Below are positions 2,565 through 49,269 of a stretch of 64,000 nucleotides of DNA, in pieces (within the stretch, counting starts at the first letter, position 1; every line of letters begins with the position of its first letter). The position numbers and the translations under genes are program-made. Under the pieces are notes generated by a model that did not search any database, was not told where the DNA came from, and saw nothing but the letters and a program-made list of their open reading frames with translations. The stretch covers positions 529,518 through 593,517 of the forward strand of contig CAVOQP010000010.1 in the NCBI GenBank assembly GCA_963698385.1, written 5' to 3'. This stretch comes from an uncultured Acidimicrobiia bacterium (GTDB taxonomy: Bacteria > Actinomycetota > Acidimicrobiia > Spongiisociales > JAENVV01).

Positions 2565-2604
2565 GGAGGCTCATTCGCTACGGTTCACCGACCGCGGAGG
2601 CCAC

Positions 2605-16565: not shown

Positions 16566-16644
16566 CCCGTCAACCTACCGGGATCACCCGGCTTGGCTCT
16601 GGACTTCTCCAATAGCGGCTGCCACCCTACGCTTCGTGAGGTCC

Positions 16645-27583: not shown

Positions 27584-27601
27584 TTGTGAAACGGATTACA
27601 A
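27584..27601 (+). promoter_or_regulatory. Candidate Rex-type operator TTGTGAA-ACGG-ATTACAA upstream of nsrR-nosZ
   Basis: 12/14 match to the Rex operator consensus TTGTGAA-N4-TTCACAA, 33 nt upstream of the nsrR start. It could alternatively be the Rrf2 site. Confidence 0.35.
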
Positions 27602-27633
27602 TCGGATATAGACTCCGGGAGTCAACAACTCTC

Positions 27634-28026: not shown

Positions 28027-28044
28027 GGAGAAGGAGAACCCCTC

Positions 28045-30048: not shown

Positions 30049-30071
30049 ACGCAACGAAGACTGGAGAAACG

Positions 30072-30728
30072 ATGGAGGCCACCAATCGTTTCCTCGGCCC
30101 CCGGGTCCCGAAAGAGACCCGGGGGCGGAGGGAATTCAGACTCCCTACGATCTTCTTCGTCAGCGCAGCCGTGCTGTTGTTGGCGTCGATCTTCGTTCCC
30201 TACTGGCGCCTGAACCTTGCCGCGCCCCAGTTCCCCAAGGGACTCATCGTCGACATCTACGTCAACGAGATGGCCGGGGACGTCGACCTCCTCGAGGGGC
30301 TCAACCACTATGTGGGACTCCCCGGGTTCGACGAAGGCGCGACACTCGAGCGCCAGATCGCCGTTGCCGGCATCCTGGCGGTCGTGGGTGCGCTCGCAGC
30401 GGGATTGTTCATCCACAGCAAATGGATCGTCCTGTTCACGCTTCCCACGCTCACGTTCCCGCTGGTGTTCCTGGCTGACCTTCAGTATTGGCTCTGGCAC
30501 TACGGGCACTCGCTCGACCCACTGGCACCGTTCGCCAGCGCCGTCGGCGAGTTCACCCCACCGGTGCTGGGACCATCCAAGATCGCCCAGTTCGACACCA
30601 TGGCCCTACCCCACGTCGGCCTCATCATGGCCTTCACCGCCACCGCACTCGTGATCCTCGGCCTTCGGGCCCATCGCAAGGTGTACGAGCCGTTGTTCGA
30701 GGCAGCCGATGAGGCACCGGTTGCATAG
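30072..30728 (+). CDS. NosB-like integral membrane protein (clade II nos accessory)
   Basis: 218 aa, about 5-6 TM, immediately after nosZ as in clade II clusters. Confidence 0.55.
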   Translation: MEATNRFLGPRVPKETRGRREFRLPTIFFVSAAVLLLASIFVPYWRLNLAAPQFPKGLIVDIYVNEMAGDVDLLEGLNHYVGLPGFDEGATLERQIAVAGILAVVGALAAGLFIHSKWIVLFTLPTLTFPLVFLADLQYWLWHYGHSLDPLAPFASAVGEFTPPVLGPSKIAQFDTMALPHVGLIMAFTATALVILGLRAHRKVYEPLFEAADEAPVA

Positions 30729-32166: not shown

Positions 32167-33017
32167 TCTCCATCACGAACCTCACCAAGCGCTACGGCTC
32201 CCAACTGGCGCTTGACGACGTGTCGATCGAGATCCCCGCCGGCGACGCGATCGCGCTCTGGGGCCACAACGGCGCCGGCAAGACGACCATCGTCCGCTCG
32301 ATCCTCGGCCTCATCCACTACCAGGGCGGGATCACGGTCGGCGGTCATGACGCGTTCTCGGAGGGGATCGCCGTTCGCCACCTCATCGGCCATGTACCCC
32401 AGGAACTCTCCTTCCACGATGAACTCACCGTGGCGGAGACGATGGAGTTCTCCTGCGCCCTCAAGGGCGTCAGCGGCGCACGGGCCAGGGAAGTCCTGGC
32501 CCAGGTGGGACTCGAGGGAGAGCTCGGCAAGAGGGTCGGGGCCCTCTCCGGGGGAATGAAGCAGCGCCTCGCCATCGGCCTCGCCCTGCTGGCCAACCCA
32601 CCCGTCCTGCTCCTCGACGAGCCGACCTCCAACCTGGATGCGGCCACCCGCGAGCAGATGGTCCACGTGCTGCAGGACCTGAAATCCGAGCAAAGGACCC
32701 TGGTACTCACCTCCCACAACCTCGGGGAAGTCGGCCTGCTGGCAGACCGGGTCATCACCCTCGAACACGGCCGAGTCGTGCTCGAATGCAGCCCCGGCGA
32801 ACTCGACGCGAAGCTCGGGATCTCGACCTGGCTCCATGTCACCGTCAAACAAGACGAGATCAGCCGAGCCATCGAGGCGATCCTCGGGATTGGCATGAAG
32901 GCTCGCAGCAACGGGACCGGCATCCTCGTCGAGGCGCCCGCCCAGGAGAAGGCCAAGGCCCTCGCGGTACTCGCCGCAGCCGGTGTCGATGTCCAGGACT
33001 TCGAGGTGTGGCGATGA
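32163..33017 (+). CDS. nosF: NosF ABC transporter ATP-binding protein
   Basis: GHNGAGKTT Walker A, LSGGMKQRLAIG signature, LLLDEPTSNLD Walker B. Confidence 0.85.
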   Translation: MISITNLTKRYGSQLALDDVSIEIPAGDAIALWGHNGAGKTTIVRSILGLIHYQGGITVGGHDAFSEGIAVRHLIGHVPQELSFHDELTVAETMEFSCALKGVSGARAREVLAQVGLEGELGKRVGALSGGMKQRLAIGLALLANPPVLLLDEPTSNLDAATREQMVHVLQDLKSEQRTLVLTSHNLGEVGLLADRVITLEHGRVVLECSPGELDAKLGISTWLHVTVKQDEISRAIEAILGIGMKARSNGTGILVEAPAQEKAKALAVLAAAGVDVQDFEVWR

Positions 33018-33847
33018 ACGGGCACTGGAACGCCATCCGAACCGTGGCCCGCAAGGAACTGCGGGAATCGATCCGCAACCGTTGGTTGTGGGCCATGGCC
33101 TCCGGCTTCGCACTCATCGCAGTAGCTCTCACCCTCGTGGGGCTTCCCGGCGCCCGAACCGTGGGGGCCGGGGGGTTCGGGCGCACCGCGGCGTCGTTGG
33201 TGGCCCTTGCCCAGCTCATGGCACCGCTCCTCGGGCTCACGGTGGGTGCCCAGGCGCTGGCCACGGCACGTGAGCGGGGGACCCTTCGCTTCGTGCTGTC
33301 ACACCCAATCGGCCGCTCCGACGTCCTCGCAGGGATGTTCCTGGGCTTGGGGAGCGCGGTCTGGGCGGCCGTGCTTGCCGGGTTCGGCGCCGCTGCGCTG
33401 GTGAGCGCGGCCCTGGGCTCCGCGGGACCGGCCGCGGTCGTCTTCACACTCACGGTCCTCTCCGGGTTGCTCGCCACGGCAATGCTCGCCCTCGGGATGG
33501 CCATCGGTGCCGGGAAGCGCGAGGCCTCCACGGCCCTCGGCACGGCCATCTTCATCTGGCTGCTGCTCGTGTTCGCAGGGGACCTGGGAATCATGGGGTC
33601 GGCCATTGCCGTCAAGATGCCGGTGAGCATCCTGTTCTTCTCGGTGATGATCAACCCGGTGGAGGCCTTCCGCATGCTGGCTGTGCCGTTCTTCGCCACA
33701 TCACTCGACGTGCTCGGGCCCGCCGGCTCCTATGCAGTCGACACACTGGGGTCCTTGGCACCCGCCACCGGCGCAGTGGTGTTGGCAGCGTGGATCGTCA
33801 TCCCCGGCGTGTTTGCATTGCGGCGATTCAATCGGAGTGACTTCTGA
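33014..33847 (+). CDS. nosY: NosY ABC-2 type permease
   Basis: 6 TM. ATG overlaps the nosF stop (ATGA). Confidence 0.8.
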   Translation: MNGHWNAIRTVARKELRESIRNRWLWAMASGFALIAVALTLVGLPGARTVGAGGFGRTAASLVALAQLMAPLLGLTVGAQALATARERGTLRFVLSHPIGRSDVLAGMFLGLGSAVWAAVLAGFGAAALVSAALGSAGPAAVVFTLTVLSGLLATAMLALGMAIGAGKREASTALGTAIFIWLLLVFAGDLGIMGSAIAVKMPVSILFFSVMINPVEAFRMLAVPFFATSLDVLGPAGSYAVDTLGSLAPATGAVVLAAWIVIPGVFALRRFNRSDF

Positions 33848-34443
33848 TGACCCCCCACCGAGCCCGAGCGTCGAGCCCGAGCCAGCGGCGCCGAAGCCCA
33901 CACGTGCTCGTGCTGGTGCTCGCGCTCGGGCTGTTCGCGGCCGCCTGCTCCACCTCCGTCAACCTCGATGAACCGCCTGGGCTGAACGTCGGCCGGGACA
34001 TCTGCGCCCGGTGCGGCATGATCATCGAGGACGTCAGGTTCGCCGCCGGCTTTCGGCTTGAGGACGGCACGTCCCGGGTGTTCGACGACATCGGCGGGAT
34101 GTTGGCATGGGGCAAGCTCTCCGGAGAACTCGAAGGGGCCCGCGTCTGGGTCCACGACTACCACTCGGAGTCGTGGGTCGATGCGACGACCGCTACATTT
34201 GTCCTGTCATCCGATATCCCGACGCCGATGGCGTTCGGCATCGCCGCCTTCTCCACCAGGGAGGCAGCGGAGGCCTTCGCCCAGGAGTTGGATGCCATGG
34301 TCCACAGCTGGGACGATGTCTCGGCCATGGGCGAGGCAGGAGAACTCGAAGATCACCACGGCGAAGGAGCCGAGGGAGCCAACGCAGACCATGCAACCCA
34401 TGCGTCCGAGTCGGAGGTAGAGCATGCACACACTGATTCCTAA
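33847..34443 (+). CDS. nosL: NosL copper-chaperone lipoprotein
   Basis: Lipobox LFAAAC and DICARCGMII motif. Confidence 0.8.
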   Translation: MTPHRARASSPSQRRRSPHVLVLVLALGLFAAACSTSVNLDEPPGLNVGRDICARCGMIIEDVRFAAGFRLEDGTSRVFDDIGGMLAWGKLSGELEGARVWVHDYHSESWVDATTATFVLSSDIPTPMAFGIAAFSTREAAEAFAQELDAMVHSWDDVSAMGEAGELEDHHGEGAEGANADHATHASESEVEHAHTDS

Positions 34444-34468
34444 CCGGAACCCAAGAAAGGAACCAACC

Positions 34469-34873
34469 ATGAAGAAGAGCACGATCGCGATCCTCTTCAC
34501 TGTCCTCGCTCTGATGGTCGCCGCGTGCGGCGGCGGGAGTGACGGCGACGGTGGGACCGCCGCGACCGAAGCTCCATCCGGAGCCGGCTCCGGCGGCGAT
34601 GCAGCCAACGGCGAGAAGGTCTTCGCCGGCACCTGCTCGGCCTGCCACGGTGCAGACGCAATGGGCATCGACGGTCTCGGCAAGCAGCTTGTCGAGTCCG
34701 AATTCGTCGCGAGCCAATCCGACAGTGAGCTTTTCACGCTCATCACGACCGGACGCCCCTCAAGCGATCCCCTCAACACGACAGGCGTCGACATGCCTCC
34801 CAAGGGCGGCAACCCTTCGCTCAACGATGCGGCGATTGCCGATCTCGTCGCCTACCTCAGGTCCCTGGCCTAG
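34469..34873 (+). CDS. Mono-heme c-type cytochrome lipoprotein (probable electron donor to NosZ)
   Basis: AAAGGAACCAACC then ATG. Lipobox LMVAAC and CSACHG heme-binding motif. Confidence 0.75.
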   Translation: MKKSTIAILFTVLALMVAACGGGSDGDGGTAATEAPSGAGSGGDAANGEKVFAGTCSACHGADAMGIDGLGKQLVESEFVASQSDSELFTLITTGRPSSDPLNTTGVDMPPKGGNPSLNDAAIADLVAYLRSLA

Positions 34874-36445: not shown

Positions 36446-37690
36446 CTACTTCGCCAACACCGTTCCCGGCGCCTTCTTCACAATGGCTTCGAGGGCCTGG
36501 TAGGCCTGCTCCCCGATTCCCTTCTCCTCCTCGTTGAGGAGATTGGCCATCACCTTGAGGACCCACTCCATGAGCGGTCGCGACCGCAGGCCCACATGGG
36601 TGAGCGTGCGCATGACCGAGGGGTAGCCGATCGCCTTCACGAAGAGACGGGCAAAGCGGTAGTAGTCGCCGTACTCGTCCTGCAGGCTGGCCTCGTACCG
36701 ACCAAGCAGCGTGGGATCATGAGCGTCGATGGCCTCGCCGAGCACCCGGGCGGCGAGATGACCGGTCTCATAGGCGTAGGAGATCCCCTCACCGTTCCAG
36801 GGGTTGATGGCCCCGGCTGCATCGCCGACGATCAGCCAATTCGGACCGGAGCGCGGTCCCACCGAGAGCGCCATCGAGAGCTTTCCGCCCCGGTGCCCCG
36901 TGGGGTTGGTCAGGTCCCAGTAGTCGGGTGAAGAGTCGACGTAGGCACTCATCATGTCGCTCGTGTTGACGTCCTTCCATCGCTTGAACGTCGAGAGGAG
37001 ACCGACGCCGACGTTCACCTGCCCGTCGCCGAGGGGGAAGATCCATCCATAACCCGGCATTGCAGCGCCAGTGGCGTCTCGAATGTCGAGCTGGGACTCC
37101 ATGAAGCGGTCGTCGCTGCGCGGGGAGTCGAAATAGCCGCGGGCGGCGAGGCCCATGGGGTAATCACGACGCCGGTGGGTGCCGAGTTCCCTGCCGACTC
37201 GCGACAGAGAGCCGTCCGCCACCACCACGTAATCGACATCGATCACCTCACTGTCCGTCCCTCGGTCGAGGGTGACCGAGGAGATCCTGCCCCGATCGAC
37301 CTGGACCGAGCCGGTTGTTCGATCGACGATCTTGACGCCCTCGGCCCTGGCCAACTCGGCGACCTGGAGATCAAGATCCCGCCGACGGATGATGCCGCCC
37401 CAGTTCGGGAAGACGGGATGGTCGGGCCAGTCGAGTTCCAGGCAGAGCGAGTCACCGGCGTAGGAGCGGAGACCGGTCACCCGGTGGAAGCCGGGGACGT
37501 CGAAGTCGAACCCCATGCGTTGGAGTTGGTGGATGGCCCGCGGAGTCAAACCGTCCCCACAGGTCTTGTCCCTGGGGAAGCGCTTCTTCTCGATGAGGGT
37601 CACATCGTGACCGGCCTTCGCCAGCCAGAGCGCGGCAGCTGCCCCGCCGGGTCCGGCTCCGATCACTGCGATCCTGGGGGAGGACGACAT
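36446..37690 (-). CDS. Geranylgeranyl-reductase-family FAD-dependent oxidoreductase
   Basis: IAVIGAGPGGAAAALWLAKAGHDVTLIEK dinucleotide fold and GDAAG motif. Confidence 0.8.
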   Translation of the reverse strand: MSSSPRIAVIGAGPGGAAAALWLAKAGHDVTLIEKKRFPRDKTCGDGLTPRAIHQLQRMGFDFDVPGFHRVTGLRSYAGDSLCLELDWPDHPVFPNWGGIIRRRDLDLQVAELARAEGVKIVDRTTGSVQVDRGRISSVTLDRGTDSEVIDVDYVVVADGSLSRVGRELGTHRRRDYPMGLAARGYFDSPRSDDRFMESQLDIRDATGAAMPGYGWIFPLGDGQVNVGVGLLSTFKRWKDVNTSDMMSAYVDSSPDYWDLTNPTGHRGGKLSMALSVGPRSGPNWLIVGDAAGAINPWNGEGISYAYETGHLAARVLGEAIDAHDPTLLGRYEASLQDEYGDYYRFARLFVKAIGYPSVMRTLTHVGLRSRPLMEWVLKVMANLLNEEEKGIGEQAYQALEAIVKKAPGTVLAK

Positions 37691-37786
37691 CGACGGGAAG
37701 GGTACCGCCGGGTCCGGCCTAGCCCGTGGGAGGGACCCGTCCTCGACCCGGCACCGAAGCGTCATCGGGACAATCTCCTACAATCC

Positions 37787-38572: not shown

Positions 38573-40405
38573 ATGACGTGGATCCCTGACGCGGCGACGG
38601 TGGCCGGGGCCAACCTCACTCGAGCAATCGCCGATCGTGGACTCGAGTCGTATGCCGACTTCCATGCGTGGTCGGTGACCGACCGAGCAGCGTTCTGGAC
38701 CGACGTGGTCGACCGACTCGGGATCGCCTTTGCCCGTGGTCCTGCCGCTGTCCTCGGGTCCGGGGATCCACTCGATCCGCAGTGGATGCGCGGCGCGCTC
38801 CTCAACATCGCCGAAAGCTGTTTCACGGGTGACCCCACCGGGACAGCCGTCATCCACGGGACCGGGACCACATGCACCCGGGTCACCTTCGGGAAGCTCC
38901 AACAGGATGTCTGGCGGTTCGCCAACGGACTCGACGCCCTCGGCCTCGGCCCCGGCGATCGGGTCGGAGTCGCCATGCCGATGACCTATCAGTCGGTGGT
39001 CGCCTATCTCGGCACGGTGTGGGCCGGCGGGACGGTCGTCTCGATCGCCGACTCGTTCGCACCTCCGGAGATCGCCACCCGGCTACGAATCGCTGATGCC
39101 CACCTCGTCGTCACCCAAGACCGGGTCGAGCGCGGCGGGAAGGAGCTCCCGATGGCGGCCAAGGTCTTGGCGGCCGGGGCCGAGCGGGCGGTCGTCGTCG
39201 ACACCGGTGGCCCGATCAGGTCGAGGCCCGGGGATCTCGACTGGACCGCGTTCATGGCGGATCCCACCGAACGCCCCGCGACCCGAACCGCGCCCCACCA
39301 CAGGACGAACATCCTCTTCTCGTCGGGTACCACCGGCGATCCAAAGGCGATCCCGTGGACCCAGGTGACCCCGATCAAGGCCGCCATGGACGGGTACTTC
39401 CACCAGGACATCCATGCTTCCGACGTCGTGGCCTGGCCGACGAACCTCGGATGGATGATGGGTCCGTGGCTCATCTACGCCACGCTCATCAACGGGGCCA
39501 CCATGGCCCTCCACGATGACGTGCCCACAGGCCATTCGTTCGCCGACTTCGTCGAGTCGGCGGGGGTCACGATCCTCGGCGTGGTCCCGAGCCTCGTCGC
39601 CTCGTGGCGAGCCACAGGTGTGTTGTGCGAGGCGGATTGGAGCCGGGTCCGACTCTTCAGCACAACAGGTGAAGCCTCGAAGGCGGCCGACATGGAGTGG
39701 CTGATGGAGGTTGGCGGGGGAAAACCGGTGATCGAGTACTGCGGTGGCACCGAGATCGGGGGCGGCTACCTCACTTCGACCGTACTCCACCCCTCGGTGC
39801 CCTCCCACTTCACCACTGCCGCCCTTGGCCTCGACCTGATGATCCTCGACGACAAGGGCCACCCGGGGGAGATCGGCGAGGTGTTCCTCGAACCACCTTC
39901 GATCGGGCTCTCGGAGACACTCCTCAACAGCGATCACTTCACCGTCTACCACGCGGAGGCACCTGCACTCGGCGGCCGCACCCTCCGCCGCCACGGGGAT
40001 GAGGTGATTCGCCTCCCTGACGGGACCTACCGAGTACTGGGGAGGGCGGACGACACGATGAACCTCGGCGGAATCAAGGTGGGGTCAGCGGAGCTCGAAC
40101 GGGCGATCGCCGATACCCCGGGCCTGGCGGACTGCGCCGCCGTCGCAGTGGCATCGGATGGGGGCGGCCCTGCCATGCTGGTGATCTTCGCCGTGGCCGC
40201 GACCGGGACAGACCCCGAGGAGCTGAGAACGGCATTCACGGTCGGGATCAGGGAACGACTCAATCCCCTCTTCAAGGTGGCGAGAGTGGTGATCGTCGAT
40301 GCGCTCCCGCGGACGGCATCAGGAAAGGTGATGCGCCGGGAGCTACGCGACCGGGCTGCTGTCCAGGACGAGAAGCCCCTCGCGGACGCAGACGCAGACG
40401 CCTAG
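38573..40405 (+). CDS. AMP-dependent synthetase/ligase (acetyl-/acyl-CoA synthetase family)
   Basis: FSSGTTGDPK AMP-binding motif, ...GRADDTMNLGGIKV, ...PRTASGKVMRR. Confidence 0.8.
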   Translation: MTWIPDAATVAGANLTRAIADRGLESYADFHAWSVTDRAAFWTDVVDRLGIAFARGPAAVLGSGDPLDPQWMRGALLNIAESCFTGDPTGTAVIHGTGTTCTRVTFGKLQQDVWRFANGLDALGLGPGDRVGVAMPMTYQSVVAYLGTVWAGGTVVSIADSFAPPEIATRLRIADAHLVVTQDRVERGGKELPMAAKVLAAGAERAVVVDTGGPIRSRPGDLDWTAFMADPTERPATRTAPHHRTNILFSSGTTGDPKAIPWTQVTPIKAAMDGYFHQDIHASDVVAWPTNLGWMMGPWLIYATLINGATMALHDDVPTGHSFADFVESAGVTILGVVPSLVASWRATGVLCEADWSRVRLFSTTGEASKAADMEWLMEVGGGKPVIEYCGGTEIGGGYLTSTVLHPSVPSHFTTAALGLDLMILDDKGHPGEIGEVFLEPPSIGLSETLLNSDHFTVYHAEAPALGGRTLRRHGDEVIRLPDGTYRVLGRADDTMNLGGIKVGSAELERAIADTPGLADCAAVAVASDGGGPAMLVIFAVAATGTDPEELRTAFTVGIRERLNPLFKVARVVIVDALPRTASGKVMRRELRDRAAVQDEKPLADADADA

Positions 40406-40758
40406 ATGTCCTTGTCCTGCTCTTGCTCCCACTTGCCCAAGGCCGTGAGGAACATGAAGAACAGGATCGTGGAGACGATCATCCAGCTGAGGGGGATGAT
40501 CCGGATCTCGAAGTTGTTGAGTCCTTCGAAGTTGGCCGGCTTGGGGCCCCGCGGGGCGTACATGACGAACAGAAGGGAGTTGATCGCCATCCACCCCGAC
40601 AGGCCTGCTCCAACGACGAGGAAGGCCAGTTTCTTGCCGAGATTGGTGGCGTTGATGAGGTACACCGACCCGTAGAACACGAGGATCGCCGACAGCACCA
40701 GGACGATGCCGGTGAACAGGACACTTGAGCTCAACAGCTCCCGCATGAGTTCTCGCAT
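40402..40758 (-). CDS. Small 3-TM membrane protein (last gene of the bc-complex operon)
   Basis: 118 aa and hydrophobic. Overlaps the stop of the upstream cytochrome c gene. Confidence 0.5.
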   Translation of the reverse strand: MRELMRELLSSSVLFTGIVLVLSAILVFYGSVYLINATNLGKKLAFLVVGAGLSGWMAINSLLFVMYAPRGPKPANFEGLNNFEIRIIPLSWMIVSTILFFMFLTALGKWEQEQDKDI

Positions 40759-42281
40759 CAGTTGCCTCCTCCGAGCGCTGGACCGCCCAAGGTGTCGCCC
40801 AGCAGGTATGTGGCCAGCAGGTCGAGGTCGGCCTGGGAGAGCAAACCACCGAACCCGGGCATGTACCCGCGGCCGATGCCGTTCACGCCGTAGGGCTGGC
40901 CCGACACGGAGCCCGAGGCGATGAAGCCGGCCAGGCTCACGGCGTCACCGAACTGGACCGTCGCCCTGGGTGGCAGCAACGATGGCCCGAACCCGCCGGC
41001 GCCGATCGGGCCCTGGAACGCCGCCCCGGCCGAGTATCCGGTGGTGTGACATCGCGAGCAGTTGGCGTTGAAGAGGTTGATGGCTCGTTGGGCCGAGGCG
41101 CGGTCGCCACTGAATGAAGCGTCCGCCACCGCATCGATGTCGACCTCCCACAGCGCACCTGAGATGGCGTCGGTCAAATAGTCGAGCCCACCCTGGAACC
41201 GCTCGAGGGTCCGGGCCTTGGTCTCGGCCGCCACCTCGAAGAGCTGGATCGTCTTGATGATTCTCGAGAAGTCGCCTTCCACGACGTGGCCGCCCTCGTC
41301 GGTGTAGCCGTGGAACACGTCGCCGTCGTCGGTGACCCCGTTCGTCCTTGGGTTCCGCGGGTCGAGGTCGAGGTCGGGTATCAGCACGGGCGTCACGCCG
41401 AGTACCTCGTACTCCTTGAGCCCGAGGGCTGCCACCTCGGCGAAGAGCCCGGGGAGGAGGTTCTCGGCATTGTCGGAGAGGCCGTCCCGGTCGACGTCGA
41501 CGCCGTCGTCCTCCGAGAGGGCCACGATCTTCTCACCGATGACAGAGAGGGCCGGGGCGAAGCGCCCCGCATCGTTGGCGAATGCGACCAGCGTCTGCTG
41601 GGATGCCAGCAGCGCGGCCGCCGCGTCGCCGCTTCCTTCGAGCCTGGCCTGGGCGACTGCCACGTCGCCTTCGATGAGGTTGAGCGCCTCGGCCTGGGTG
41701 AGTTGGACCGACTCGATGTAGTTGAGGAGGTCTTCGACCTCCTGGTCGTTGAGGGGTCCGCCCCCAGCGAGACCCCACGCCGGCATCGGGGTCCCCGGGC
41801 GCCCGTACTCGATCCAGAACTTGACCTCGTCGCGGCTGTACCGATACATGATCGTGTCGAGTCGGGGAGCCAGCCAACTGACAGCCACGTTGGACCGGCC
41901 CTCGACGAAGGAGGCCACGCCCCCGGACAGCCCCGGTCCATGACACCCGGCGCAGTCGAGTCCACCGTCGGCGGTGGTGGCCGCAGCCGCGGTCCCGCGC
42001 GCCAGCGACTCCGCCTCGAAGTCGTGGGCGAACCCGGCCTGGCGGTCGGTCTCACCGAGGAAGTACACCGGCATCGAGATGGCGAGGAAAGCAGCGAAGA
42101 TGACCGACCAGGCCAGGGCCTTGTCGAGTCGGGGACCCTCCAGTTCGTCGTTCGGCATCCCCGGGCGCAGGTTCGCCGGGACCTTCTCCTTGCCCTTCCC
42201 ACGCACGGAGCCGACGACCATGTACGACAACCAGGTGACGACCGCGACCGCGGCGAGCACCATGACGAGACTGTTCAGCAT
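40758..42281 (-). CDS. Membrane-anchored di-heme c-type cytochrome
   Basis: AAAGGAG RBS. N-terminal TM segment, then CAGCHG and CSRCHT heme motifs. Confidence 0.8.
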   Translation of the reverse strand: MLNSLVMVLAAVAVVTWLSYMVVGSVRGKGKEKVPANLRPGMPNDELEGPRLDKALAWSVIFAAFLAISMPVYFLGETDRQAGFAHDFEAESLARGTAAAATTADGGLDCAGCHGPGLSGGVASFVEGRSNVAVSWLAPRLDTIMYRYSRDEVKFWIEYGRPGTPMPAWGLAGGGPLNDQEVEDLLNYIESVQLTQAEALNLIEGDVAVAQARLEGSGDAAAALLASQQTLVAFANDAGRFAPALSVIGEKIVALSEDDGVDVDRDGLSDNAENLLPGLFAEVAALGLKEYEVLGVTPVLIPDLDLDPRNPRTNGVTDDGDVFHGYTDEGGHVVEGDFSRIIKTIQLFEVAAETKARTLERFQGGLDYLTDAISGALWEVDIDAVADASFSGDRASAQRAINLFNANCSRCHTTGYSAGAAFQGPIGAGGFGPSLLPPRATVQFGDAVSLAGFIASGSVSGQPYGVNGIGRGYMPGFGGLLSQADLDLLATYLLGDTLGGPALGGGN

Positions 42282-42300: not shown

Positions 42301-43158
42301 TCAGATGCAGGACGGGCCCTGCGGGTACTTCACGGACTTACGGACGGCACGAGATGTCTCGATGATCTGGCCGGTGCTGATGATGAACCGGTTGCGATCG
42401 TTCACCGCCACGACGAAGCGGTCGAGGTTGCGAGGCGCCGGGCCGGCGATGTATTCACCGGCGGCGTTGTACTTCGATCCGTGGCAGGGGCACTCGAATC
42501 CCTGTGACGGTGTGCACCACGGGACCCGGCAGCCGAGGTGCACGCAGGTCTGGTAGAGGGCGACCAGGTTGTGGTCGACCGTCGAGTTTCCCTCGAACTG
42601 GGACCCGGTCACCGACTCCGGCAGCATTGGGATGACGTAGGCGCGGGCCTCCGGGAGGAACAGCGGGCTGATGGTCCCGTCGGCGTTGAGGACCTTGGCC
42701 AGGATCTCGTCGGCATCGCCACCATCGATGTCCGCCCCGAAGCCGCCCTTCACCTTCGGCCACATGAAGGCAAAGGCGCTCATCCCGAAACCGGCGAGGA
42801 AGGTCCCCCACATGGCAAGGAGGGCACGGTTCAGGAACATGCGGCGGGTGACGCCTTGCTCGTCGGGGGTGGCCTCGACGTAGTCCACGACGACGGGGGA
42901 CTCCTCGGCCACTTCGGTGAGGACCATCGTGTCGCCGGTCCCGGCGTCCGCCACGGCATCCGCCACTGCGTGCTCCTCGGCGACCTGGGCAGTGGCGATC
43001 ATCACCGGGACCTCGGAGCGCTTGTCGGCCTTGGCGGCCTTCTCGTCGACCCTCGCCTTCCAGCCCGGGTCGTTGCTCCGGCGGTAGGCAATCGTGAAGG
43101 CGGCCGCAGCAGCAAGGACGGCAACCGCCGCCAGCGCAATCGGGAGCAGGTCGGTCAT
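42301..43158 (-). CDS. Rieske [2Fe-2S] iron-sulfur subunit of a cytochrome bc/b6f-type complex
   Basis: CVHLGC...CPCHGS Rieske boxes with an N-terminal TM anchor. The long N-terminal extension of ORF 42301..43473 is rejected. Confidence 0.85.
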   Translation of the reverse strand: MTDLLPIALAAVAVLAAAAAFTIAYRRSNDPGWKARVDEKAAKADKRSEVPVMIATAQVAEEHAVADAVADAGTGDTMVLTEVAEESPVVVDYVEATPDEQGVTRRMFLNRALLAMWGTFLAGFGMSAFAFMWPKVKGGFGADIDGGDADEILAKVLNADGTISPLFLPEARAYVIPMLPESVTGSQFEGNSTVDHNLVALYQTCVHLGCRVPWCTPSQGFECPCHGSKYNAAGEYIAGPAPRNLDRFVVAVNDRNRFIISTGQIIETSRAVRKSVKYPQGPSCI

Positions 43159-43967
43159 CAGTGGCCTCCGAGGTCCGCGAAGTGGACCCAGTCCTTGAGA
43201 TCGTCGAAGAAGATCCCATCGTTCCACGGGTAGACGAAGTTGAAGCCCGGACCCCGGAAGAGGACACCGAACATCGTGAGCGTCGCCGCGCCCATCAGGA
43301 AGAACGTGAACATGAAGATCACGAACTTGCGATCGGATGGCTTGGTCGAAGGGTTCTTGTCGATGTAGGGCACGGCCATGAGCCCGAACAGACCGGTGAT
43401 GAGCGGGACCGACACACCTGCGACCGCAGGGTCGAAGTAGGAAAGGAGTTCCTGCAAGCCGAGGAAGTACCACGGGGCCTTCGACGGGTTGGGGGTGGCG
43501 TTGAAGTTCGCGGCCTCGAGCAGCGGAGCCTGGAGGATGGTCGAGAGAACGATGAGGATCCCGGTGACCGCGAGAAGAGCCGCGAACTCGATGATCATCA
43601 GGTGCGGCCAGGTGTTCACCTTGTCCTGGGGTTCGACCTTGGCCTGCTGAATCGCCTTGGCCTTGACGACGGTGAGGAGACGCTGGGTCCGCACACCCTC
43701 CGGGCCCGAGACCGCCGGGGCGACCGGGCGCACCGAGGTGGCTTTCGACGGGTCACCGGTCATCACCACTGCGGCAGGCACCGGTGCAGCCGCAGGAGCA
43801 GCCGCGACAGCCGGTGCCGGTTCCGCGGCGGGTACGGCCGCAACGGGCGCGGCAGTCGGGGGCGCTTCGCCCTTCAGTTGGGCCATCGCTTCCTCGACCG
43901 AGATGCCGAGTGCTTTCGCCTTGGCCTCCGCCGACCGGCGGAGTAGGTGTTCGGGGAGTTCAGCCAT
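43158..43967 (-). CDS. Cytochrome b C-terminal (subunit IV-like) protein with extra N-terminal cytoplasmic module
   Basis: PWYFLGLQELLSYF motif of cytochrome b6f subunit IV / cytochrome b C-terminus. N-terminus MAELPEHLLRRSAEAKAKALGISVEE resembles the N-termini of 47560 and 48343. Confidence 0.75.
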   Translation of the reverse strand: MAELPEHLLRRSAEAKAKALGISVEEAMAQLKGEAPPTAAPVAAVPAAEPAPAVAAAPAAAPVPAAVVMTGDPSKATSVRPVAPAVSGPEGVRTQRLLTVVKAKAIQQAKVEPQDKVNTWPHLMIIEFAALLAVTGILIVLSTILQAPLLEAANFNATPNPSKAPWYFLGLQELLSYFDPAVAGVSVPLITGLFGLMAVPYIDKNPSTKPSDRKFVIFMFTFFLMGAATLTMFGVLFRGPGFNFVYPWNDGIFFDDLKDWVHFADLGGH

Positions 43968-43979: not shown

Positions 43980-44741
43980 TTACAGCGGCCCAGAGATGCC
44001 GCCATCCTTCCGGACACGCCAGAAGTGGACGGCCATGAAGATGACGATGATGAATGGGAAGAAGAGGACATGGAGCACGTACCAGCGGAGGAGGGTGTCG
44101 GCCGACACCACCGCCGAGCCCAGCAGGGTGAACTTCACCTGGCTCCCGAAGACCGGCACGAACGACGCCATGTTCGTTCCCACGGTGACGGCCCAGAGGG
44201 CCAACTGGTCCCACGGCAGGAGGTAGCCGGTGAAGGAGAGAAGGAGAGTGAGGAGCAGGAGCACGACGCCGACCACCCAGTTGAACTCGCGGGGCGGCTT
44301 GTAGGCACCGTGGTAGAAGACCCGGCTCATGTGGAGGAAGACCGTGAGCACCATGAAGTGGGCTCCCCACCGGTGCATGTTCCGCACGAGGGACCCGAAC
44401 GCCACGGAGGTCGAGAGCTCCTGGATGTCCTGGTAGGCAGCCTCGGCGGTCGGGGCGTAATAGAACATGAGGAAGATGCCGGTGATCGTCAGCAGGATGA
44501 AGAGGAAGAAGCTGAGGCCCCCGAGGCACAGGGTGTAGGAGAGCCGAACGCTGTGCCGCTTCACCTTGACCGGGTGGAGGTGATAGAGCACGTTGTTCAT
44601 GATCACGTAGGAGCGGTTGCGGGGGCTGTCCGTGTACCCCTTCTTGAAGGGGGACCCCGGCCGGAGGATCGAGTCCATGAGCGGACTGCCATGCAGGGCC
44701 GACGGAAGCTCTTTGACCTTGTTGAGGAGTTTCTGCACCAC
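43980..44741 (-). CDS. Cytochrome b6-like (N-terminal half of a split cytochrome b; bis-His heme b ligands)
   Basis: 4 TM with His pairs ([10 protein letters not shown], ...HVLFFPF...HFW). GTG start at VVQKLLNKV is an inference. Confidence 0.75.
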
Positions 44742-44746
44742 TGTTC

Positions 44747-45199
44747 TCACATCCCGCGAATGCCGTAGACGAACCCGTTCTTGTGGTCCCGCTCGCCCGA
44801 GTCGATCTCCCACGGGGCGGGGAGACCTTCCTGCTCGGCGGTGGCGGAGACCGAACCTTCGAACTTGCCGAGGGTGATCACGCCCGTGGGGCACCGGTCG
44901 ATGCAGAGCGCGCACCGGGTGCAGGTGTCCTCGTCCACGAGGAAGAAGCCGAACGCCTCGGGGTCATCGTGGGGATCGGCCACACCGGATGCATCGCGGA
45001 TGGCGTCGATCGAGAGGTAGTGGATGCACTTCCAGGGACAGATATCGACGCAGCCCTCACACAGGATGCATTCGGCTTGGTCGATGTGGAGGAACTGCTT
45101 GGGTCTGACCTGCTTGAGCAGGTAGTCGCCTTCGACCAGGGCGAGGGTGTAGTCGTCGCGGATCGGGGGGACTTCGAAGTAGACCTCGGTGCGGGCCAT
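44747..45199 (-). CDS. 2x[4Fe-4S] ferredoxin-type subunit
   Basis: [12 protein letters not shown] and [16 protein letters not shown] overlap with the upstream gene. Confidence 0.8.
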
Positions 45200-45831
45200 C
45201 AGGCGCCGGCCTTCTTCAGCGGGCGGCCATACGGGGAGATCGCATCGCCCTCGGCCACCCTCGGTGTCGTCTTCCCCCACCCCTGGATCTTGAAAGCGAA
45301 GTACAGGACCGCCGCCAGCGAGGCGAGGTGGTAGCCACCGAGGACCATGTCCTTGAGGGCTGCGTAGGAAATGCTGATCGGGTTGTTGAGCACGATCCAC
45401 TTGGGGATCGTGAAGGCGATCTTCTGGGAGGTGAAACCGAGGGGGCCCTGGGTGAGGTTCAGCCACTCGGACGGGATGACGCCCCACACGAGGATGAGTT
45501 CGATGAAGGCCAGCCAAGCTGCGAAGCCTGCCCGTGCCCACGTCATCGGCTTGTTGGCCACCCACTGCAGCGCGGCACCGGCCAGGAGGAACTGTGAACC
45601 GCCGATCGCCACCAACTGCCCGGCGGTGAAGACGACCCAGTGGCGGGGAACCCAGGTGAGGTAGGTCGCGAAGTGCTCCTCCCCGGGAGCCGTGCCATCG
45701 GGGGCGAGCCCGGCGTGGGCAAAGAAGATCCCGACCACCAACGCGCCGAAGCCCAACACCATGAGCGCCCACGCGATGCGTGAGCGTTGCTTGTCGGTGA
45801 GGTTGGCAAGTCGATGAATCAGTCGGTCCAT
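45199..45831 (-). CDS. Hypothetical membrane protein (about 5 TM), first gene of the bc-complex operon
   Basis: MDRLIHRLANLTDKQRSRIAWALMVLGFGALVVGIFFA... Confidence 0.45.
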   Translation of the reverse strand: MDRLIHRLANLTDKQRSRIAWALMVLGFGALVVGIFFAHAGLAPDGTAPGEEHFATYLTWVPRHWVVFTAGQLVAIGGSQFLLAGAALQWVANKPMTWARAGFAAWLAFIELILVWGVIPSEWLNLTQGPLGFTSQKIAFTIPKWIVLNNPISISYAALKDMVLGGYHLASLAAVLYFAFKIQGWGKTTPRVAEGDAISPYGRPLKKAGA

Positions 45832-46153
45832 GCGAGCCGTCGATGCCTGTCTTGGGTCGGTGTTCCTGTTCGCGGCGATGCCCGTGGGAGGCCAGGGCGT
45901 CGGCGCCATGTTTAGCAGAATCACCCTACCGACATCGAAACGGGATCAAGGTCCGGATCGCCGTCGAGGACGGGTCCCGGGGCGTCGGAGGCCGGGACCG
46001 AGCGGCGGCTGGAAGGCGGGTTTTGACGCTCCCCATCCGGAGAGCGAGAATGCGTGACGCCGGCGCGGGTTCGCGTCGGGCGAGGGAGCATGAAGGAGTC
46101 GCGGACCGGTAGGCTGCGGCCGTCTCCGACCGAGGAAAGAGAAGGAGTTGGGG

Positions 46154-47563
46154 TTGGCCACTGACACAGAAGCGGCACACGCGGTGGATGGTGCCACCGT
46201 CGTGACCCGCTGGGCGCTGGTGGCGGGCGCTGTCCTGATCGCCTTGGCCGCCTTCCTCCACTTCAGCGCATGGCTCTCGCTGGTCTTCCCGCCGGTCTTC
46301 GGCGGGTTGGGATTCGCGCAATTCGGACGACTGAAACCCATGGCCGATGCCGTCCTGATGTTCGGTGGCTTCTACTTCGTCAATACCGGCGCCCTCTACA
46401 TCCTCCTCCCGCGCCTCACCGGCACCACACTGCGGGATGTCGGCCTCGCGCGTGCCAACACCCTGTGGACGCTGCTCGTGGGCGTCGCCTCGGTCGTCGC
46501 CGTGGGTATCGGACTCGGCGACGGAAGGGCCGGCTTCGAGTTCCCGCTCATCCTCGACGCCGCCTATCTCACAACCCTCTTCGTCCCGGCCTGGATCACC
46601 CGGCGTGCATTCTCGACTCGAACCGAGGACTCGCTCCACCCGACCGTGTGGGCCCTGATGACGGGGTTCCTCGCCCTGGCGGTTGCCCTCGTTGTCGCCA
46701 ACTTCCCCCTCACGGAGGCCACCGGAGGTTGGATCCAAGTGGCGTTCGGACGCGGCCTCGTGCTGTGGACCTGGGTGCTCGGGTCGGGCGTCGGCATCGC
46801 CTGGTACGTGGTGCCCAAGGCATCCGGTCGTCCGCTGTTCAGTCGTCAACTGGCTCAGATCGTCGTCTTCTCGATGCTTCTCCCACCCGCGGTCGCAGGG
46901 CTGGCCGGGCTGGCATTCGGCCCGGTCGCCGATTGGGCCGAGACCATCGGCGTCGTCTTCCGATTCTCCCTACTGGTCCCCGCGCTCGCAGTGCCGGCCG
47001 GGATCCTCGGCACCATCAACGGGGCCGATGGGCCACGGATCGCCTCGTCGCCCGCCGTTCGTACTGCGCTCGCCGGCTCTTGGCTGCTCGCCGGAGGCGG
47101 CGTCGCCAGCGCGCTCTCCGCCTTTCCCTACGTCCAGTCCGTTGTCGGACTCACGACCTTCGAGGACGGAACCATGGCGCTCCTGGTAGGAGCCGCCACG
47201 CTCTTCGCCGCTTCGTTCATCTACCACTGCCTCCCGGAGGTGACCGGCAAACCCCTCTTCTCGACGACGTTGGCCATCGACCACATGAAGCTCGTGCTGT
47301 GGGGGTCGGGCTTGACTGCCCTCTTCCTCTGGTACGCCGGGATCTACTCCGGTGCCGGGTTCCGGGGCGGCGCCCTCGGGGGACTGTGGACGGCGGTCGG
47401 TGACGGATTCGGTGATGCCACGGACGGGGCGATCCCCCTCTACATGATCGCACTCCTCGGGATGGCGTTGGTGGCGGCCGGCCAGGTCGCCTTCATGATC
47501 AACGTCCTCGGCACGACCCGCGGCGGTGCGGCCACGACCGAGTCCGAGGAGGTGGCCGCATGA
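46154..47563 (+). CDS. 12-TM membrane protein with three internal 4-TM sequence repeats; occupies the ccoN-like position but lacks the heme-copper-oxidase His ligand set
   Basis: GAAGGAG RBS. 12 hydrophobic segments. Repeated motif Y.LLPRLTGTTL / WYVVPKASGRPLFSRQL / YHCLPEVTGKPLFSTTL, one per third. Only 4 His in the TM region and no HH pair. Its stop overlaps the ATG of the FixO-like gene. Confidence 0.55.
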   Translation: MATDTEAAHAVDGATVVTRWALVAGAVLIALAAFLHFSAWLSLVFPPVFGGLGFAQFGRLKPMADAVLMFGGFYFVNTGALYILLPRLTGTTLRDVGLARANTLWTLLVGVASVVAVGIGLGDGRAGFEFPLILDAAYLTTLFVPAWITRRAFSTRTEDSLHPTVWALMTGFLALAVALVVANFPLTEATGGWIQVAFGRGLVLWTWVLGSGVGIAWYVVPKASGRPLFSRQLAQIVVFSMLLPPAVAGLAGLAFGPVADWAETIGVVFRFSLLVPALAVPAGILGTINGADGPRIASSPAVRTALAGSWLLAGGGVASALSAFPYVQSVVGLTTFEDGTMALLVGAATLFAASFIYHCLPEVTGKPLFSTTLAIDHMKLVLWGSGLTALFLWYAGIYSGAGFRGGALGGLWTAVGDGFGDATDGAIPLYMIALLGMALVAAGQVAFMINVLGTTRGGAATTESEEVAA

Positions 47564-48336
47564 GTGAGTACCTCGCAGCCGCGGCCGCCAACATGGGCAT
47601 GCCCGAGTCACTCGTGATGCGCTCCGCCGAGGCCAAGGCCAAGGCTGGCGGTGTCACCGTCGAGGACCTCCTCAGGGAATGGGCGGGCGGGGAACCGGCG
47701 ACTGCGTCCGCGCCTCCGTCCGCGCCCGCGTCTGCAGCTTCGTCTGCCCCGGAGCCTGTGTCTGCGGCTGCTCCAGCCGCTCCCGCCGCGCCGGTGGTCG
47801 TCACAGCCGCTGCGACACGACGGCACGTCGTGGCCCGCAAGGACCCGGATGCTGCCCCCCTCCTCGTAGGCGCCCGACAGGGACACATCCGGATGCTCTT
47901 GACCATCATGACGGTGCTCGTCGTCGGCTCAGCCCTCGGGGCGCTCCTGCCGACCCAGGCCGCCCGCCAGGACGTGAACAACGCCATCGGCTCACAACCC
48001 GACTACACCGACCAAGCCATCAGCGGGCGGGACATCTACCTGGCCGAGGGGTGCTGGACATGCCACACGATGGTGGTCAGGGCCACCGCCACCGACTACG
48101 GCCTCGGCAAGGTCACCACCCCGAAGGACGTTGCGCCGGTTGCCGGTGAGTCGCTCGGGGTGCGGAGGATCGGTCCCGACCTCGCCCACATCGGAAGTCG
48201 CCGAGACCCGGCCTTCATCTTCAACTTCCTCGTCGACCCCGGCTCGGTGGCCGAAGGTGCCCGGCACCCCGGCTATGCGTTCCTTTCCGAAGACGAACTC
48301 GGCTCGCTGACCGCGTTCCTGATCGAGACGAAGTGA
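47560..48336 (+). CDS. ccoO: FixO/CcoO-like membrane-anchored mono-heme cytochrome c (cbb3 oxidase subunit II family) with N-terminal extension
   Basis: GRDIYLAEGCWTCHT...RRIGPDLAHIGSR...PGYAFL aligns with the FixO motifs GRNIYIREGCYLCHS...KRTGPDLARVG...PGYAFL. Carries about 100 extra N-terminal residues. Confidence 0.8.
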   Translation: MSEYLAAAAANMGMPESLVMRSAEAKAKAGGVTVEDLLREWAGGEPATASAPPSAPASAASSAPEPVSAAAPAAPAAPVVVTAAATRRHVVARKDPDAAPLLVGARQGHIRMLLTIMTVLVVGSALGALLPTQAARQDVNNAIGSQPDYTDQAISGRDIYLAEGCWTCHTMVVRATATDYGLGKVTTPKDVAPVAGESLGVRRIGPDLAHIGSRRDPAFIFNFLVDPGSVAEGARHPGYAFLSEDELGSLTAFLIETK

Positions 48337-48342
48337 GTGCCG

Positions 48343-49269
48343 ATGAGTGAATACCTCGCAGCCGCGGCCGCCAAGATGGGCATGCCCGAGTCACTCGTCA
48401 TGCGCTCCGCCGAGGCCAAGGCCAAGGCCGGTGGCGTCACCGTCGAGGACCTGCTCCGCGAATGGGCGGGCGGGGAAGCAGCGTCAGCAGGAAAGCCCGA
48501 GCCCGGGCCCGAGCCCAAGGTGCCGGCCGAGCCGGCGTCCGAGGAGGCGGCAGCACCTGCCGCTCCGTCTGTGCCGGTCGCCGAGGCAGGGCCGGTCGAG
48601 GTGGTCTACGAGACCCTGCCGACCCCGGCGACCGTGACCCCCGAAGAAGCCATGGCCTGGGACCAGGTGACCACCATCGCTTCGGACGACGTGCGGGAGC
48701 GACCCGGGTCGGTGATCCCCCGCTGGCTGGCAGCGGCGTTCGTCATCATTCCAGTGCTGGCCCTCGGCTACCTCTTCATGAACACCGATGGCCTCACGTG
48801 CGGTGAGTCCGGCCTCCTTGCCTCGGACTTCGAAGGCAACCTCGCCAACTGCGACATGACTGCGTACGTGCCGGGAGGAGGGTCCGAGGGCGCGCTCGTC
48901 ACTGCAGCTTTCGCCGAAGGACAGGGGCTCTATTCGTCGTGCGTGTCGTGCCACGGAGCGAGCGGGGAAGGTGGTGTGGGCCCCGCATTCGGGGACGTGA
49001 CCACGACCTTTGCCGCCTGCTCCGACCACATCGAGTGGGTCAAGGTTGGCTCGGCGGGTTGGCCGACCGGGACATACGGGGACATTGGGAAACCGGTCGT
49101 CGGGGGCATGCCGGGGTTCTTCGCATCGATGTCCGAGGACCAACTCCAGTCCATCGCCCTCTACGAGCGGGTCCAGTTCGGTGGGGAAGCACTCACCGAC
49201 GCCGGGGTCAACTGCGGCATCGTCGAGGCTGAACCCGCCGAGGGCGAAGCTCCCGCTGAGGACGCCTGA
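48343..49269 (+). CDS. Membrane-anchored mono-heme cytochrome c with the same N-terminal module
   Basis: N-terminal 47 aa about 90% identical to 47560. A/P linker, TM segment, CVSCHG heme motif. Confidence 0.75.
   Translation: MSEYLAAAAAKMGMPESLVMRSAEAKAKAGGVTVEDLLREWAGGEAASAGKPEPGPEPKVPAEPASEEAAAPAAPSVPVAEAGPVEVVYETLPTPATVTPEEAMAWDQVTTIASDDVRERPGSVIPRWLAAAFVIIPVLALGYLFMNTDGLTCGESGLLASDFEGNLANCDMTAYVPGGGSEGALVTAAFAEGQGLYSSCVSCHGASGEGGVGPAFGDVTTTFAACSDHIEWVKVGSAGWPTGTYGDIGKPVVGGMPGFFASMSEDQLQSIALYERVQFGGEALTDAGVNCGIVEAEPAEGEAPAEDA

Follow-up and report, generated by a model that had tools for sequence, protein, structure and literature searches.

The subject of this study is a stretch of 64,000 nucleotides from an uncultured Acidimicrobiia bacterium (GenBank assembly GCA_963698385.1, contig CAVOQP010000010.1, positions 529,518 to 593,517 of the forward strand), hereafter called the window, and in particular three consecutive genes that we designate N', O' and P' (Table 1). 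N' holds the position of the catalytic subunit CcoN of cbb3-type cytochrome c oxidases, O' resembles the mono-haem subunit CcoO/FixO, and P' encodes a further membrane-anchored cytochrome c. The trio faces a divergently oriented operon for a bc-type quinol:cytochrome c oxidoreductase with Rieske and cytochrome b6-type subunits. An original prediction, made from the DNA letters, had described N' as a 12-helix protein with three internal repeats that lacks the histidine ligands of haem-copper oxidases (HCOs). Our comparative analysis identifies N' as a descendant of CcoN in which no ligand histidine is left, and as a member of a widespread ligand-free clade associated with complex-III-type enzymes.

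Table 1. Features of the window, grouped by operon (positions refer to the window)
Feature	Position	Strand	Remarks
N', cofactor-ligand-free homologue of cbb3 subunit CcoN	46154..47563	+	469 aa, 12 transmembrane helices
FGRLKPMADAV, helix 2	46322..46354	+	low-spin haem ligand H60 (CcoN GRLRPLHTNAV) replaced by Ala
Repeat 1 (LLPRLTGTTL), loop between helices 2 and 3	46403..46432	+	hhalign of thirds; same motif in CcoN
AFGRGLV, helix 6	46742..46762	+	CuB ligand H207 (CcoN WYGHNAV) replaced
Repeat 2 (WYVVPKASGRPLFSRQL), loop between helices 6 and 7	46802..46852	+
AVAGLAGLAF, helix 7	46889..46918	+	CuB ligands H257/H258 (CcoN WAGPHHLHY) and cross-link Tyr missing
TTFEDGTMALLVG, helix 10	47153..47191	+	haem ligands H345/H347 (CcoN TDWTIGHVHAGALG) missing
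Repeat 3 (YHCLPEVTGKPLFSTTL), loop between helices 10 and 11	47222..47272	+	carries H360
O', CcoO/FixO-like mono-haem c subunit	47560..48336	+	cytoplasmic N-terminal module, transmembrane residues 110-130, CWTCH residues 165-169
N-terminal module of O' (MSEYLAAAAANMGMPESLVMRSAEAKAKAGGVTVEDLLREWAGGE)	47560..47694	+	~45 aa, cytoplasmic
RHPGY in O'	48262..48276	+	residues 235-239
P', membrane-anchored mono-haem cytochrome c, weakly CcoP-like	48343..49269	+	CVSCH, GGMPGF
Second module copy, on P'	48343..48477	+
Intergenic region between the bc-type and N'O'P' operons	45925..46153	.	229 bp
Four-helix membrane protein	45199..45831	-	210 aa; heads the bc-type operon
2x[4Fe-4S] ferredoxin-domain protein	44747..45196	-	Fer4 families; 146-151 aa in relatives
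Cytochrome b6-type subunit	43980..44750 (start approximate)	-	PF00033 162 bits; NF040969 305 bits; 253-254 aa in relatives
Subunit IV (PetD-like) with N-terminal module	43158..43967	-	PF00032
Weaker module copy, N-terminus of bc subunit IV	43869..43958	-	module profile, E 4.6e-8
Rieske iron-sulfur subunit	42301..43158 (start approximate)	-	PF00355; NF045928
Dihaem cytochrome c subunit	40758..42281	-	two Cytochrome_CBB3/Cytochrom_C domains
Small membrane protein, last in the bc-type operon	40402..40758	-	118 aa; conserved in L001-L006; no Pfam/NCBIfam match
Geranylgeranyl-reductase-like FAD protein	36446..37765	-	FAD_binding_3/GGR_cat
Nitrous-oxide reductase cluster, complete	27586..34873	+
Rrf2 regulator	27586-28026	+
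NosZ	28045-30048	+
218-aa open reading frame	30072-30728	+
NosD	30709-32166	+
NosF	32163-33017	+
NosY	within 32786-33847	+
NosL	33847-34443	+
Mono-haem cytochrome c	34424-34873	+
Two tandem CAP-domain (cysteine-rich secretory protein family) genes	16501..17343, 17394..18344	+
Adenylate/guanylate cyclase-AAA protein	2446..5451	+	1001 aa

The relationship of N' to the oxidases was established at the levels of profile, sequence and predicted structure. N' matches the Pfam family COX1 (PF00115) with 53.3 bits (gathering cut-off 34.8), and this is the sole Pfam family at E <= 0.1, with neither NnrS (PF05940) nor any transporter family among the matches; COX1 and NnrS are the two profiles that the original prediction had proposed as a test. 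The NCBIfam profile ccoN (TIGR00780) is matched over its full length (E 9e-20, 71.1 bits), below the equivalog cut-off of 583. The best phmmer match among PDB sequences is CcoN of P. stutzeri (3mk7_A, E 1.4e-11), and residues 24-459 of N' form a single collinear alignment with residues 22-461 of this protein. The AlphaFold model of N' (13 family members; predicted local distance difference test, pLDDT, 80.5; predicted template modelling score, pTM, 0.86) shows twelve long helices, in agreement with the earlier count of transmembrane helices. In Foldseek, CcoN chains (3mk7, 8smr and 6xkw) rank at the top with template modelling (TM) scores of 0.84-0.87 and E-values of 6e-18 to 5e-15, followed by NorB and subunit I of the ba3 and aa3 oxidases. 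Of the features that define an HCO subunit I, the 12-helix core, its pseudo-threefold arrangement and the profile match are present. Judged by alignment and modelled fold, N' is a genuine relative and descendant of the C-family (cbb3) CcoN, and the claim of an HCO fold in the CcoN position is borne out; a transporter, which would have contradicted that claim, is nowhere in sight, with COX1 standing alone in Pfam and CcoN being the best structure.

The gene itself is well defined. The list of open reading frames (ORFs) gives 46148..47563, and the original prediction started at 46154; the TTG codon at 46154 is the likelier start because a ribosome-binding site (GAAGGAG) lies at 46141-46147, and the database copy of the protein (P0001) begins at the same codon. 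The stop codon of N' and the ATG of O' share an ATGA at 47560-47563, an overlap that corroborates the translational coupling proposed earlier. The ratio of non-synonymous to synonymous substitution rates (dN/dS) is 0.17 in comparison with the orthologue at locus L001, the adjacent genes ranging from 0.06 to 0.29, and the reading frame is unbroken across orthologues of 36-84% identity. The substitution pattern documents that N' evolves under purifying selection.

For the inspection of the ligand positions, residues 22-461 of P. stutzeri CcoN were rebuilt from the phmmer alignment, and the six ligand histidines as well as Y251 land at the expected numbers. The ligand columns were read from this pairwise alignment, from the family alignment with CcoN and from an independent MAFFT alignment of 143 sequences. 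N' has none of the six histidines at the columns of H60, H207, H257, H258, H345 and H347 in any of the alignments used. The same complete loss is found in all 15 close family members, whereas all six are kept by each of the 27 canonical relatives aligned with them; it covers the whole Acidimicrobiia family plus 75 remoter members, including at least 13 orthologues of N'. H60 is replaced by Ala and H257/H258 by Ala/Gly, while the residue at H207 is Arg or Gly, depending on the alignment, and H345/H347 correspond to Thr and a gap or Ala. N' possesses five histidines in total (H11, H38, H164, H360 and H379). Only H360 is near-invariant; it belongs to the loop motif YH..P and occupies a position that is not a ligand in CcoN. 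The distant Acidimicrobiia orthologue at L099 contains a single histidine in 425 residues. The earlier statement that an HH pair is missing and that the few histidines lie outside the canonical helices agrees with the loss at all six columns. A frameshift that hides the histidines, the other finding that could have overturned the original prediction, recovers none of them and is excluded by the full-length alignment with CcoN, by the loss shared among at least 13 orthologues and by the histidine-poor protein of L099.

The erosion of the active site extends beyond the metal ligands. At the position of the C-family cross-link tyrosine Y251, the N' family has Pro or Gly, and the channel positions T215, Y223, S240 and Y317 are changed to Val/Leu, Trp/Phe, Ala and Leu/Ile/Val, respectively, while E323 corresponds to Val/Ala. 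Of the 27 canonical sequences, 26-27 keep the residue at each of Y251, T215, Y223, S240 and Y317. The Glu equivalent to E125 of CcoN is retained in N'. Across the family alignments, the membrane core contains no invariant His, Met, Cys, Tyr or Lys, and no new conserved polar or ligand residues emerge in N'. Nor does the NorB set of six histidines and the FeB glutamate fit, as N' lacks His at every ligand column. Because the six histidines, the active-site tyrosine and the proton-channel residues are lost, we predict from the alignments that haem b, haem b3 and CuB are almost certainly all absent from N' and that N' is almost certainly incapable of reducing O2 or NO and of pumping protons in the known way.

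The internal repeats of N' have a simpler explanation than the one proposed originally. Compared as single sequences, the thirds of N' show a weak similarity (z 1.2, 2.2 and 2.9 against shuffles), and the profile-profile comparison of the family thirds yields P-values of 3e-4, 7e-5 and 2e-5, with helices 1-2, 5-6 and 9-10 and their following loops falling on top of one another. The motif recurs at all three places in canonical CcoN (YYSVQRTCQTTLF / YYFVPKQAERPVYSYRL / YHLVPKVFGREQMHS), whose self-similarity is even stronger (z 5.9 for thirds 2 versus 3). The repeats thus go back to the pseudo-threefold symmetry that N' has inherited as an HCO subunit I, and a novel triplication is ruled out. 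Three repeats are indeed present and in register, but they are weak and not special to N'. The likeness to oxidase loop motifs was partly apt, the proper counterparts being the C-family loops between helices 2 and 3, 6 and 7, and 10 and 11; HCLPEV matches YHLVPKV of CcoN and not, as had been suggested, GHPEVY of the CuB site.

The identity of the downstream gene as a relative of FixO/CcoO was recognized correctly. O' carries a CWTCH motif and matches FixO (PF02433) with 68.8 bits (cut-off 29.6), while its score of 61 bits against the NCBIfam family CcoO (TIGR00781) lies below the cut-off of 200; it aligns with chain 6xkw_o. In its RHPGY motif, a histidine stands where CcoO has the axial methionine (S.MPxY). 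The same replacement is found in O' of L001, L004 (45% identity) and L099 (GNHPAA), and throughout the unfused O' proteins of Acidimicrobiia, whereas fused O' domains and those linked to alternative complex III (ACIII) mostly have Met (MPxY). Because the position of the axial Met is occupied by His, the O' haem is predicted to be bis-His coordinated in the lineage of the window. O' terminates about 20 residues past the axial-ligand position, and the FixO parts of natural fusions are alike in this respect. P', the partner mono-haem cytochrome whose presence had been anticipated, follows O' and contains one CxxCH, hence it is not a dihaem CcoP. Its transmembrane helix spans residues 129-148 of the ORF starting at 48337, and its Pfam matches are Cytochrom_C (1.5e-7), Cytochrome_CBB3 (5.5e-6) and, faintly, FixP_N (0.058).

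O' and P' share a cytoplasmic N-terminal module with the sequence ..GMPESLVMRSAEAKAKAGGVTVEDLLREWAGG, for which no Pfam family was matched. A hidden Markov model of the module, run against six-frame translations of the window and all loci, detected it in no proteins other than O', P' and the bc-type subunit IV, each time at the N-terminus. The module is seen at L001-L006, L011, L012, L014 and L015, and the copy on subunit IV at L001-L006, L011, L014 and L015. P' and subunit IV each bear two modules at L014 and L015, where N' and O' are fused. This distribution makes the module a candidate tether between N'O'P' and the bc assembly, or to a common cytoplasmic partner.

The original prediction had called for an examination of gene-pair conservation across related genomes, and it turned out that N'O'P' facing the bc-type operon is kept across Acidimicrobiia. 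The whole divergent layout is present in six Acidimicrobiia genome loci, down to an N' identity of 39%, and it recurs on contigs of remoter members (L011, L014/L015 and L099-L101). At L099-L101, a cyclase-like gene sits between the bc operon and N'.

A word-indexed homologue search returned 15-17 relatives, and it required an exhaustive profile search to reveal the breadth of the family. Among 1.84 billion cluster representatives, the profile of the N' family has 1,511 matches at E <= 1e-3 and 191 at E <= 1e-30. The top 150 matches (50%-identity clusters) together with the family members include 104 proteins without His at any ligand column, and the first canonical CcoN appears at rank 39 with 219 bits. 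Thirty-two ligand-free members are 600-1000 aa long, 28 of which possess both a CxxCH and the Met motif. Nine of the long ligand-free proteins were scanned; seven are fusions of N' with FixO and two are fusions with a cupredoxin, whose blue-copper domain has an intact Cys/His/Met site. One example is the gene at 5020..7104 of L016, in which N' and a type-1 (blue) copper domain form one protein; a gene for a caa3-type subunit II comes next. The same membrane-protein, ferredoxin and b6 genes as in the window face this fusion gene, with System II cytochrome c maturation genes (ResA/ResB/CcsB) in between.

A ligand-free member from a different setting is P0140 (ligand columns A/G/A/A/A/S; 85 bits to CcoN), whose gene directly follows an ACIII operon. 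A metagenome scan with the P0140 subfamily yielded at least 564 relatives, from which 80 loci were retained (L018-L097, mostly from soil, peat and wetland). No ligand histidine is present in 52 of these loci, one or two in 14, and all six in a further 14. ActF adjoins all 29 zero-His loci with at least 2 kb of upstream sequence, and actA-F are complete in all 13 with at least 9 kb; downstream, O' is found in 33 of 34 and P' in 24 of 27. The 122-aa gene between actF and N' is conserved. The superoperon actABCDEF-(122-aa gene)-N-O-P accordingly occurs in a canonical form with six histidines and in a ligand-free form, and genuine cbb3 oxidases and their ligand-free versions share one operon slot, given that 14 related contigs hold a six-His CcoN at this very place.

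The score of P0140 against the ACIII-linked canonical CcoN proteins has a median of 325 bits, compared with 56 bits against N' of the window, which groups with other ligand-free proteins (110-184 bits). Because P0140 is far closer to the ACIII-linked canonical CcoN than to N', the ligand set appears to have been lost at least twice, a number of independent losses that is based on BLAST scores and average-linkage clustering. FixG/H/I/S and FixQ genes flank all three canonical matches whose neighbours were examined, and ccoQ and ccoGHIS (FixQ/G/H/I/S) are absent from the neighbourhood of all ligand-free loci covered by gene and Pfam tables. Several intermediates (P0133, P0155, P0149, P0159, P0092, P0151 and clusters 5-7) keep the haem ligands with changed CuB ligands (patterns such as HHQNHH, HEAPHH and HEVHHH), or have only some of the histidines, and several of these proteins are 600-1000 aa long. 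They may represent further active-site variants of the C-family, as far as their ligand columns indicate.

The comparison with known systems sets the N'O'P' module apart. It shares with the cbb3 oxidase of P. stutzeri (3MK7) the CcoN fold, the order N-O-(P-like), the three loop motifs, and in O' the FixO domain with an N-terminal transmembrane helix and a CxxCH. It differs in that N' retains none of the six histidines, the cross-linked tyrosine or the proton-channel residues, O' is short past the axial site and has His for Met, and the third subunit has one haem instead of two. Because ligands, tyrosine, channel, equivalog score, dihaem CcoP and nearby maturation genes all fail, N' should not be filed as a cbb3 oxidase. 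The bc1-cbb3 supercomplexes of R. capsulatus (6XKW) and P. aeruginosa (8SMR) likewise combine a complex-III-type enzyme, genetically coupled, with an HCO-fold module and anchored c-haems, and the ACIII-aa3 supercomplex of F. johnsoniae, as cited in two published studies, is a further parallel (PMC8407424, PMC8552683). The ligand-free trio, whose coupling to complex III is presumably physical as well as genetic, is placed exactly where related operons hold a real oxidase. Since the HCO core N' cannot be the electron sink, the assembly would have to pass its electrons elsewhere.

NorB of the cNOR type is the second-best structural match of N' (4xyd_A and 3o0r_B, TM 0.76-0.78), and NorC is related to CcoO, but NorB retains six histidines and the FeB glutamate whereas N' has none of them. 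Precedents for cofactor loss or substitution among HCOs, according to a preprint, are subunit II of bo3 without CuA, qNOR without haem c and gNOR with a His-to-Lys/Asp site, the last being presented there as the first case among HCO families of an exchange of even a single active-site histidine (bioRxiv 10.1101/2021.10.15.464467). In comparison with gNOR, N' has lost all six histidines of the catalytic subunit. CydB of cytochrome bd is a haem-free paralogue of CydA with a structural role. Its fold is unrelated, however, and CydB works beside an active CydA, whereas the N'O'P' operon encodes no active HCO subunit. A search of the open-access literature found no description of a CcoN or HCO subunit I devoid of all ligands. 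A Nitrospinae paper (on bd-like oxidases) and a Ferrigenium preprint, followed as leads to ligand-free CcoN, proved irrelevant.

The gene organization joins N' with a one-electron carrier of the periplasm and places it next to a quinol:cytochrome c oxidoreductase; the ATGA overlap with O' and the natural fusions of N' with FixO and type-1 copper domains indicate that this bond is obligate. On balance, the evidence tips slightly towards N' being a dead cbb3 core that is kept as the membrane scaffold of a c-haem relay on complex-III-type enzymes. N'O'P' would stay attached to the quinol:cytochrome c oxidoreductase, which is of the Rieske/cytochrome b6-type here and an ACIII in other lineages. 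The redox-inert N' would serve as membrane scaffold and docking platform and position one or two carriers of single electrons on the outer side, that is, the haem c of O', the haem c of P' or a blue-copper domain. These carriers would take electrons from the c-haems of complex III and hand them on to separate terminal enzymes, candidate acceptors being A-family oxidases, as at the fusion locus next to caa3, or reductases outside the cytoplasm, for instance NosZ, which is encoded 16 kb away. The cytoplasmic module shared by O', P' and subunit IV would be a candidate tether of the two assemblies. Both the caa3-adjacent fusion locus and the nos cluster of the window are compatible with the relay model.

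Several points weigh against the scaffold-and-relay interpretation. A 12-helix anchor is costly where one helix suffices, and a further role of N' is therefore possible. The bis-His haem predicted for O' would usually have a lower potential, which is awkward downstream of a Rieske/c-haem donor. The absence of cofactors in all members is read from the sequences, and the contact between N'O'P' and the bc complex is deduced from gene order and the shared module. Finally, the acceptor of the relay is a candidate, with the nos cluster lying 16 kb off and its linkage known from this window.

Four other explanations were weighed. N', together with O' and P', could be a structural relic kept solely for the assembly or stability of its partner through constructive neutral evolution, with c-haems that have no specific role in electron transfer. 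The use of the same operon slot after ACIII by ligand-free and canonical forms, the occurrence of the loss at least twice and the failure of new conserved polar or ligand residues to emerge in N' are all in line with such a relic. We nevertheless regard it as unlikely, since the CxxCH and axial ligand of O' are kept in 64 of 65 ACIII-linked O' proteins and in 29 of 32 fusions, and some lineages swap the haem domain for a blue-copper domain with an intact Cys/His/Met site; the maintained haem site and the intact copper replacement point to selection on the redox carrier function and not on bulk alone. Alternatively, the active site may have been relocated, with either a small molecule such as peroxide, NO, O2 or an N-oxide being reduced at the O' haem (predicted to be His/His here, perhaps with a labile ligand) or haem or a metal being held in N' by residues other than His. 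The best argument for this is the Met-to-His switch of O', kept across distant Acidimicrobiia; moreover, a nos cluster is present in the same window, and partly degenerate relatives (HHQNHH, HEAPHH) illustrate that the family does explore new active sites. Against this stand the membrane core of N', which is free of invariant His, Met, Cys, Tyr and Lys and has lost its channel residues, and the ordinary His/Met haems of O' in most other ligand-free lineages, which make the His switch a lineage-specific and not a defining trait. A relocated site hence appears quite improbable.

The emptied 12-helix fold might also act as a conduit for ions, protons or small molecules beside the complex-III partner. 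Its full 12-helix architecture, the many conserved Gly, Pro, Trp and Arg residues and the purifying selection exceed the needs of a simple anchor, yet the membrane interior reveals no evident conserved chain of polar or charged residues, the C-family channel positions are hydrophobic, and similarity to any transporter family is lacking, so that we consider a transport function very improbable. That N' is a pseudogene or a mis-called frame of a normal ccoN could be suspected because the GC content of the genome is high and spurious ORFs overlap in many places. Decay or a wrong frame is at odds with 469 continuous codons, full-length alignment to CcoN, the low dN/dS, the ribosome-binding site and the coupling to O'; with the same substitutions conserved in many genomes and contigs, this explanation is next to impossible.

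Beyond the window, the scaffold-and-relay reading can be extended, as a tentative generalization to which we assign less confidence, to the view that cofactor-free cbb3 cores are widespread, convergent respiratory pseudoenzymes. On this view, complex-III-type enzymes (of the Rieske/b6 type in Acidimicrobiia, ACIII in lineages from soil and peat) would possess them as obligate structural subunits, with the c-haem or copper arm as the electron exit to other terminal reductases. A catalytic subunit that has been stripped of every cofactor ligand, yet kept next to complex-III-type enzymes at least twice independently, would clearly exemplify a pseudoenzyme of a bacterial respiratory chain. It would also amount to a natural experiment that separates the contribution of the HCO fold to supercomplex architecture from catalysis. 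The relay model predicts that N'O'P' contains c-type haem only, without haem b or copper, and that it co-purifies with the bc or ACIII complex.

The loss of ligands also has practical consequences for genome annotation. NCBI and JGI label ligand-free proteins as 'cbb3-type cytochrome c oxidase subunit I', and a cbb3 subunit I gene is routinely read as the capacity for microaerobic, high-affinity respiration. For genes of the ligand-free clade, which accounts for about 100 of the 150 best clusters in the profile search, this conclusion is, going by their ligand columns, almost certainly wrong. Should the generalization to a class of pseudoenzymes hold, many of the 'cbb3 subunit I' genes from which high-affinity aerobic respiration is deduced in environmental genomes would encode no oxidase. 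Acidobacterial 'cbb3' genes were reported to confer no high O2 affinity and to be barely expressed, in a study in which the ligands are not considered (PMC8407424).

The divergent bc-type operon has some uncommon members of its own. No Rex-type operator was seen by eye in the 229 bp that separate it from N'. The four-helix membrane protein at its head matches no Pfam or NCBIfam family and no PDB sequence, and its AlphaFold2 model (pLDDT 80) has no structural match in the PDB. It has 730 homologues; those with a named source are all 'hypothetical protein' entries of Acidimicrobiia, and one cluster has PF23600. The 2x[4Fe-4S] ferredoxin-domain protein is an unusual extra for a bc-type complex, and the cytochrome b6-type subunit exceeds the NCBIfam cut-off for ExtP (305 versus 290 bits). 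Three listed ORFs of the minus strand (44747..45772, 43980..44915 and 42301..43473) have long Arg/Pro/Gly-rich N-terminal extensions over the upstream genes; given the high GC content, these represent off-frame artefacts, and the true starts lie near 45196, 44750 and 43158.

No genes for a working oxidase were found in the 64-kb window. About 6 kb separate the bc-type operon from the complete nitrous-oxide reductase cluster upstream of it. Genes for NosR or NosGH-type donors were not seen with this cluster, which makes a cytochrome c route from the bc complex to NosZ plausible. The geranylgeranyl-reductase-like flavin adenine dinucleotide (FAD) protein recurs by the island in L011, L014, L017 and L099, often accompanied by a Rex-type regulator, an S-adenosylmethionine (SAM) hydroxide adenosyltransferase and a CLP1_P-loop protein, and nuo genes come next in some loci. 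The genes around bc and N'O'P' resemble a respiratory island that is conserved between loci, in which the FAD protein may have the side chain of menaquinone as its target. Elsewhere, the window contains two tandem genes of the CAP-domain family and a gene for a large cyclase-AAA protein (Table 1).

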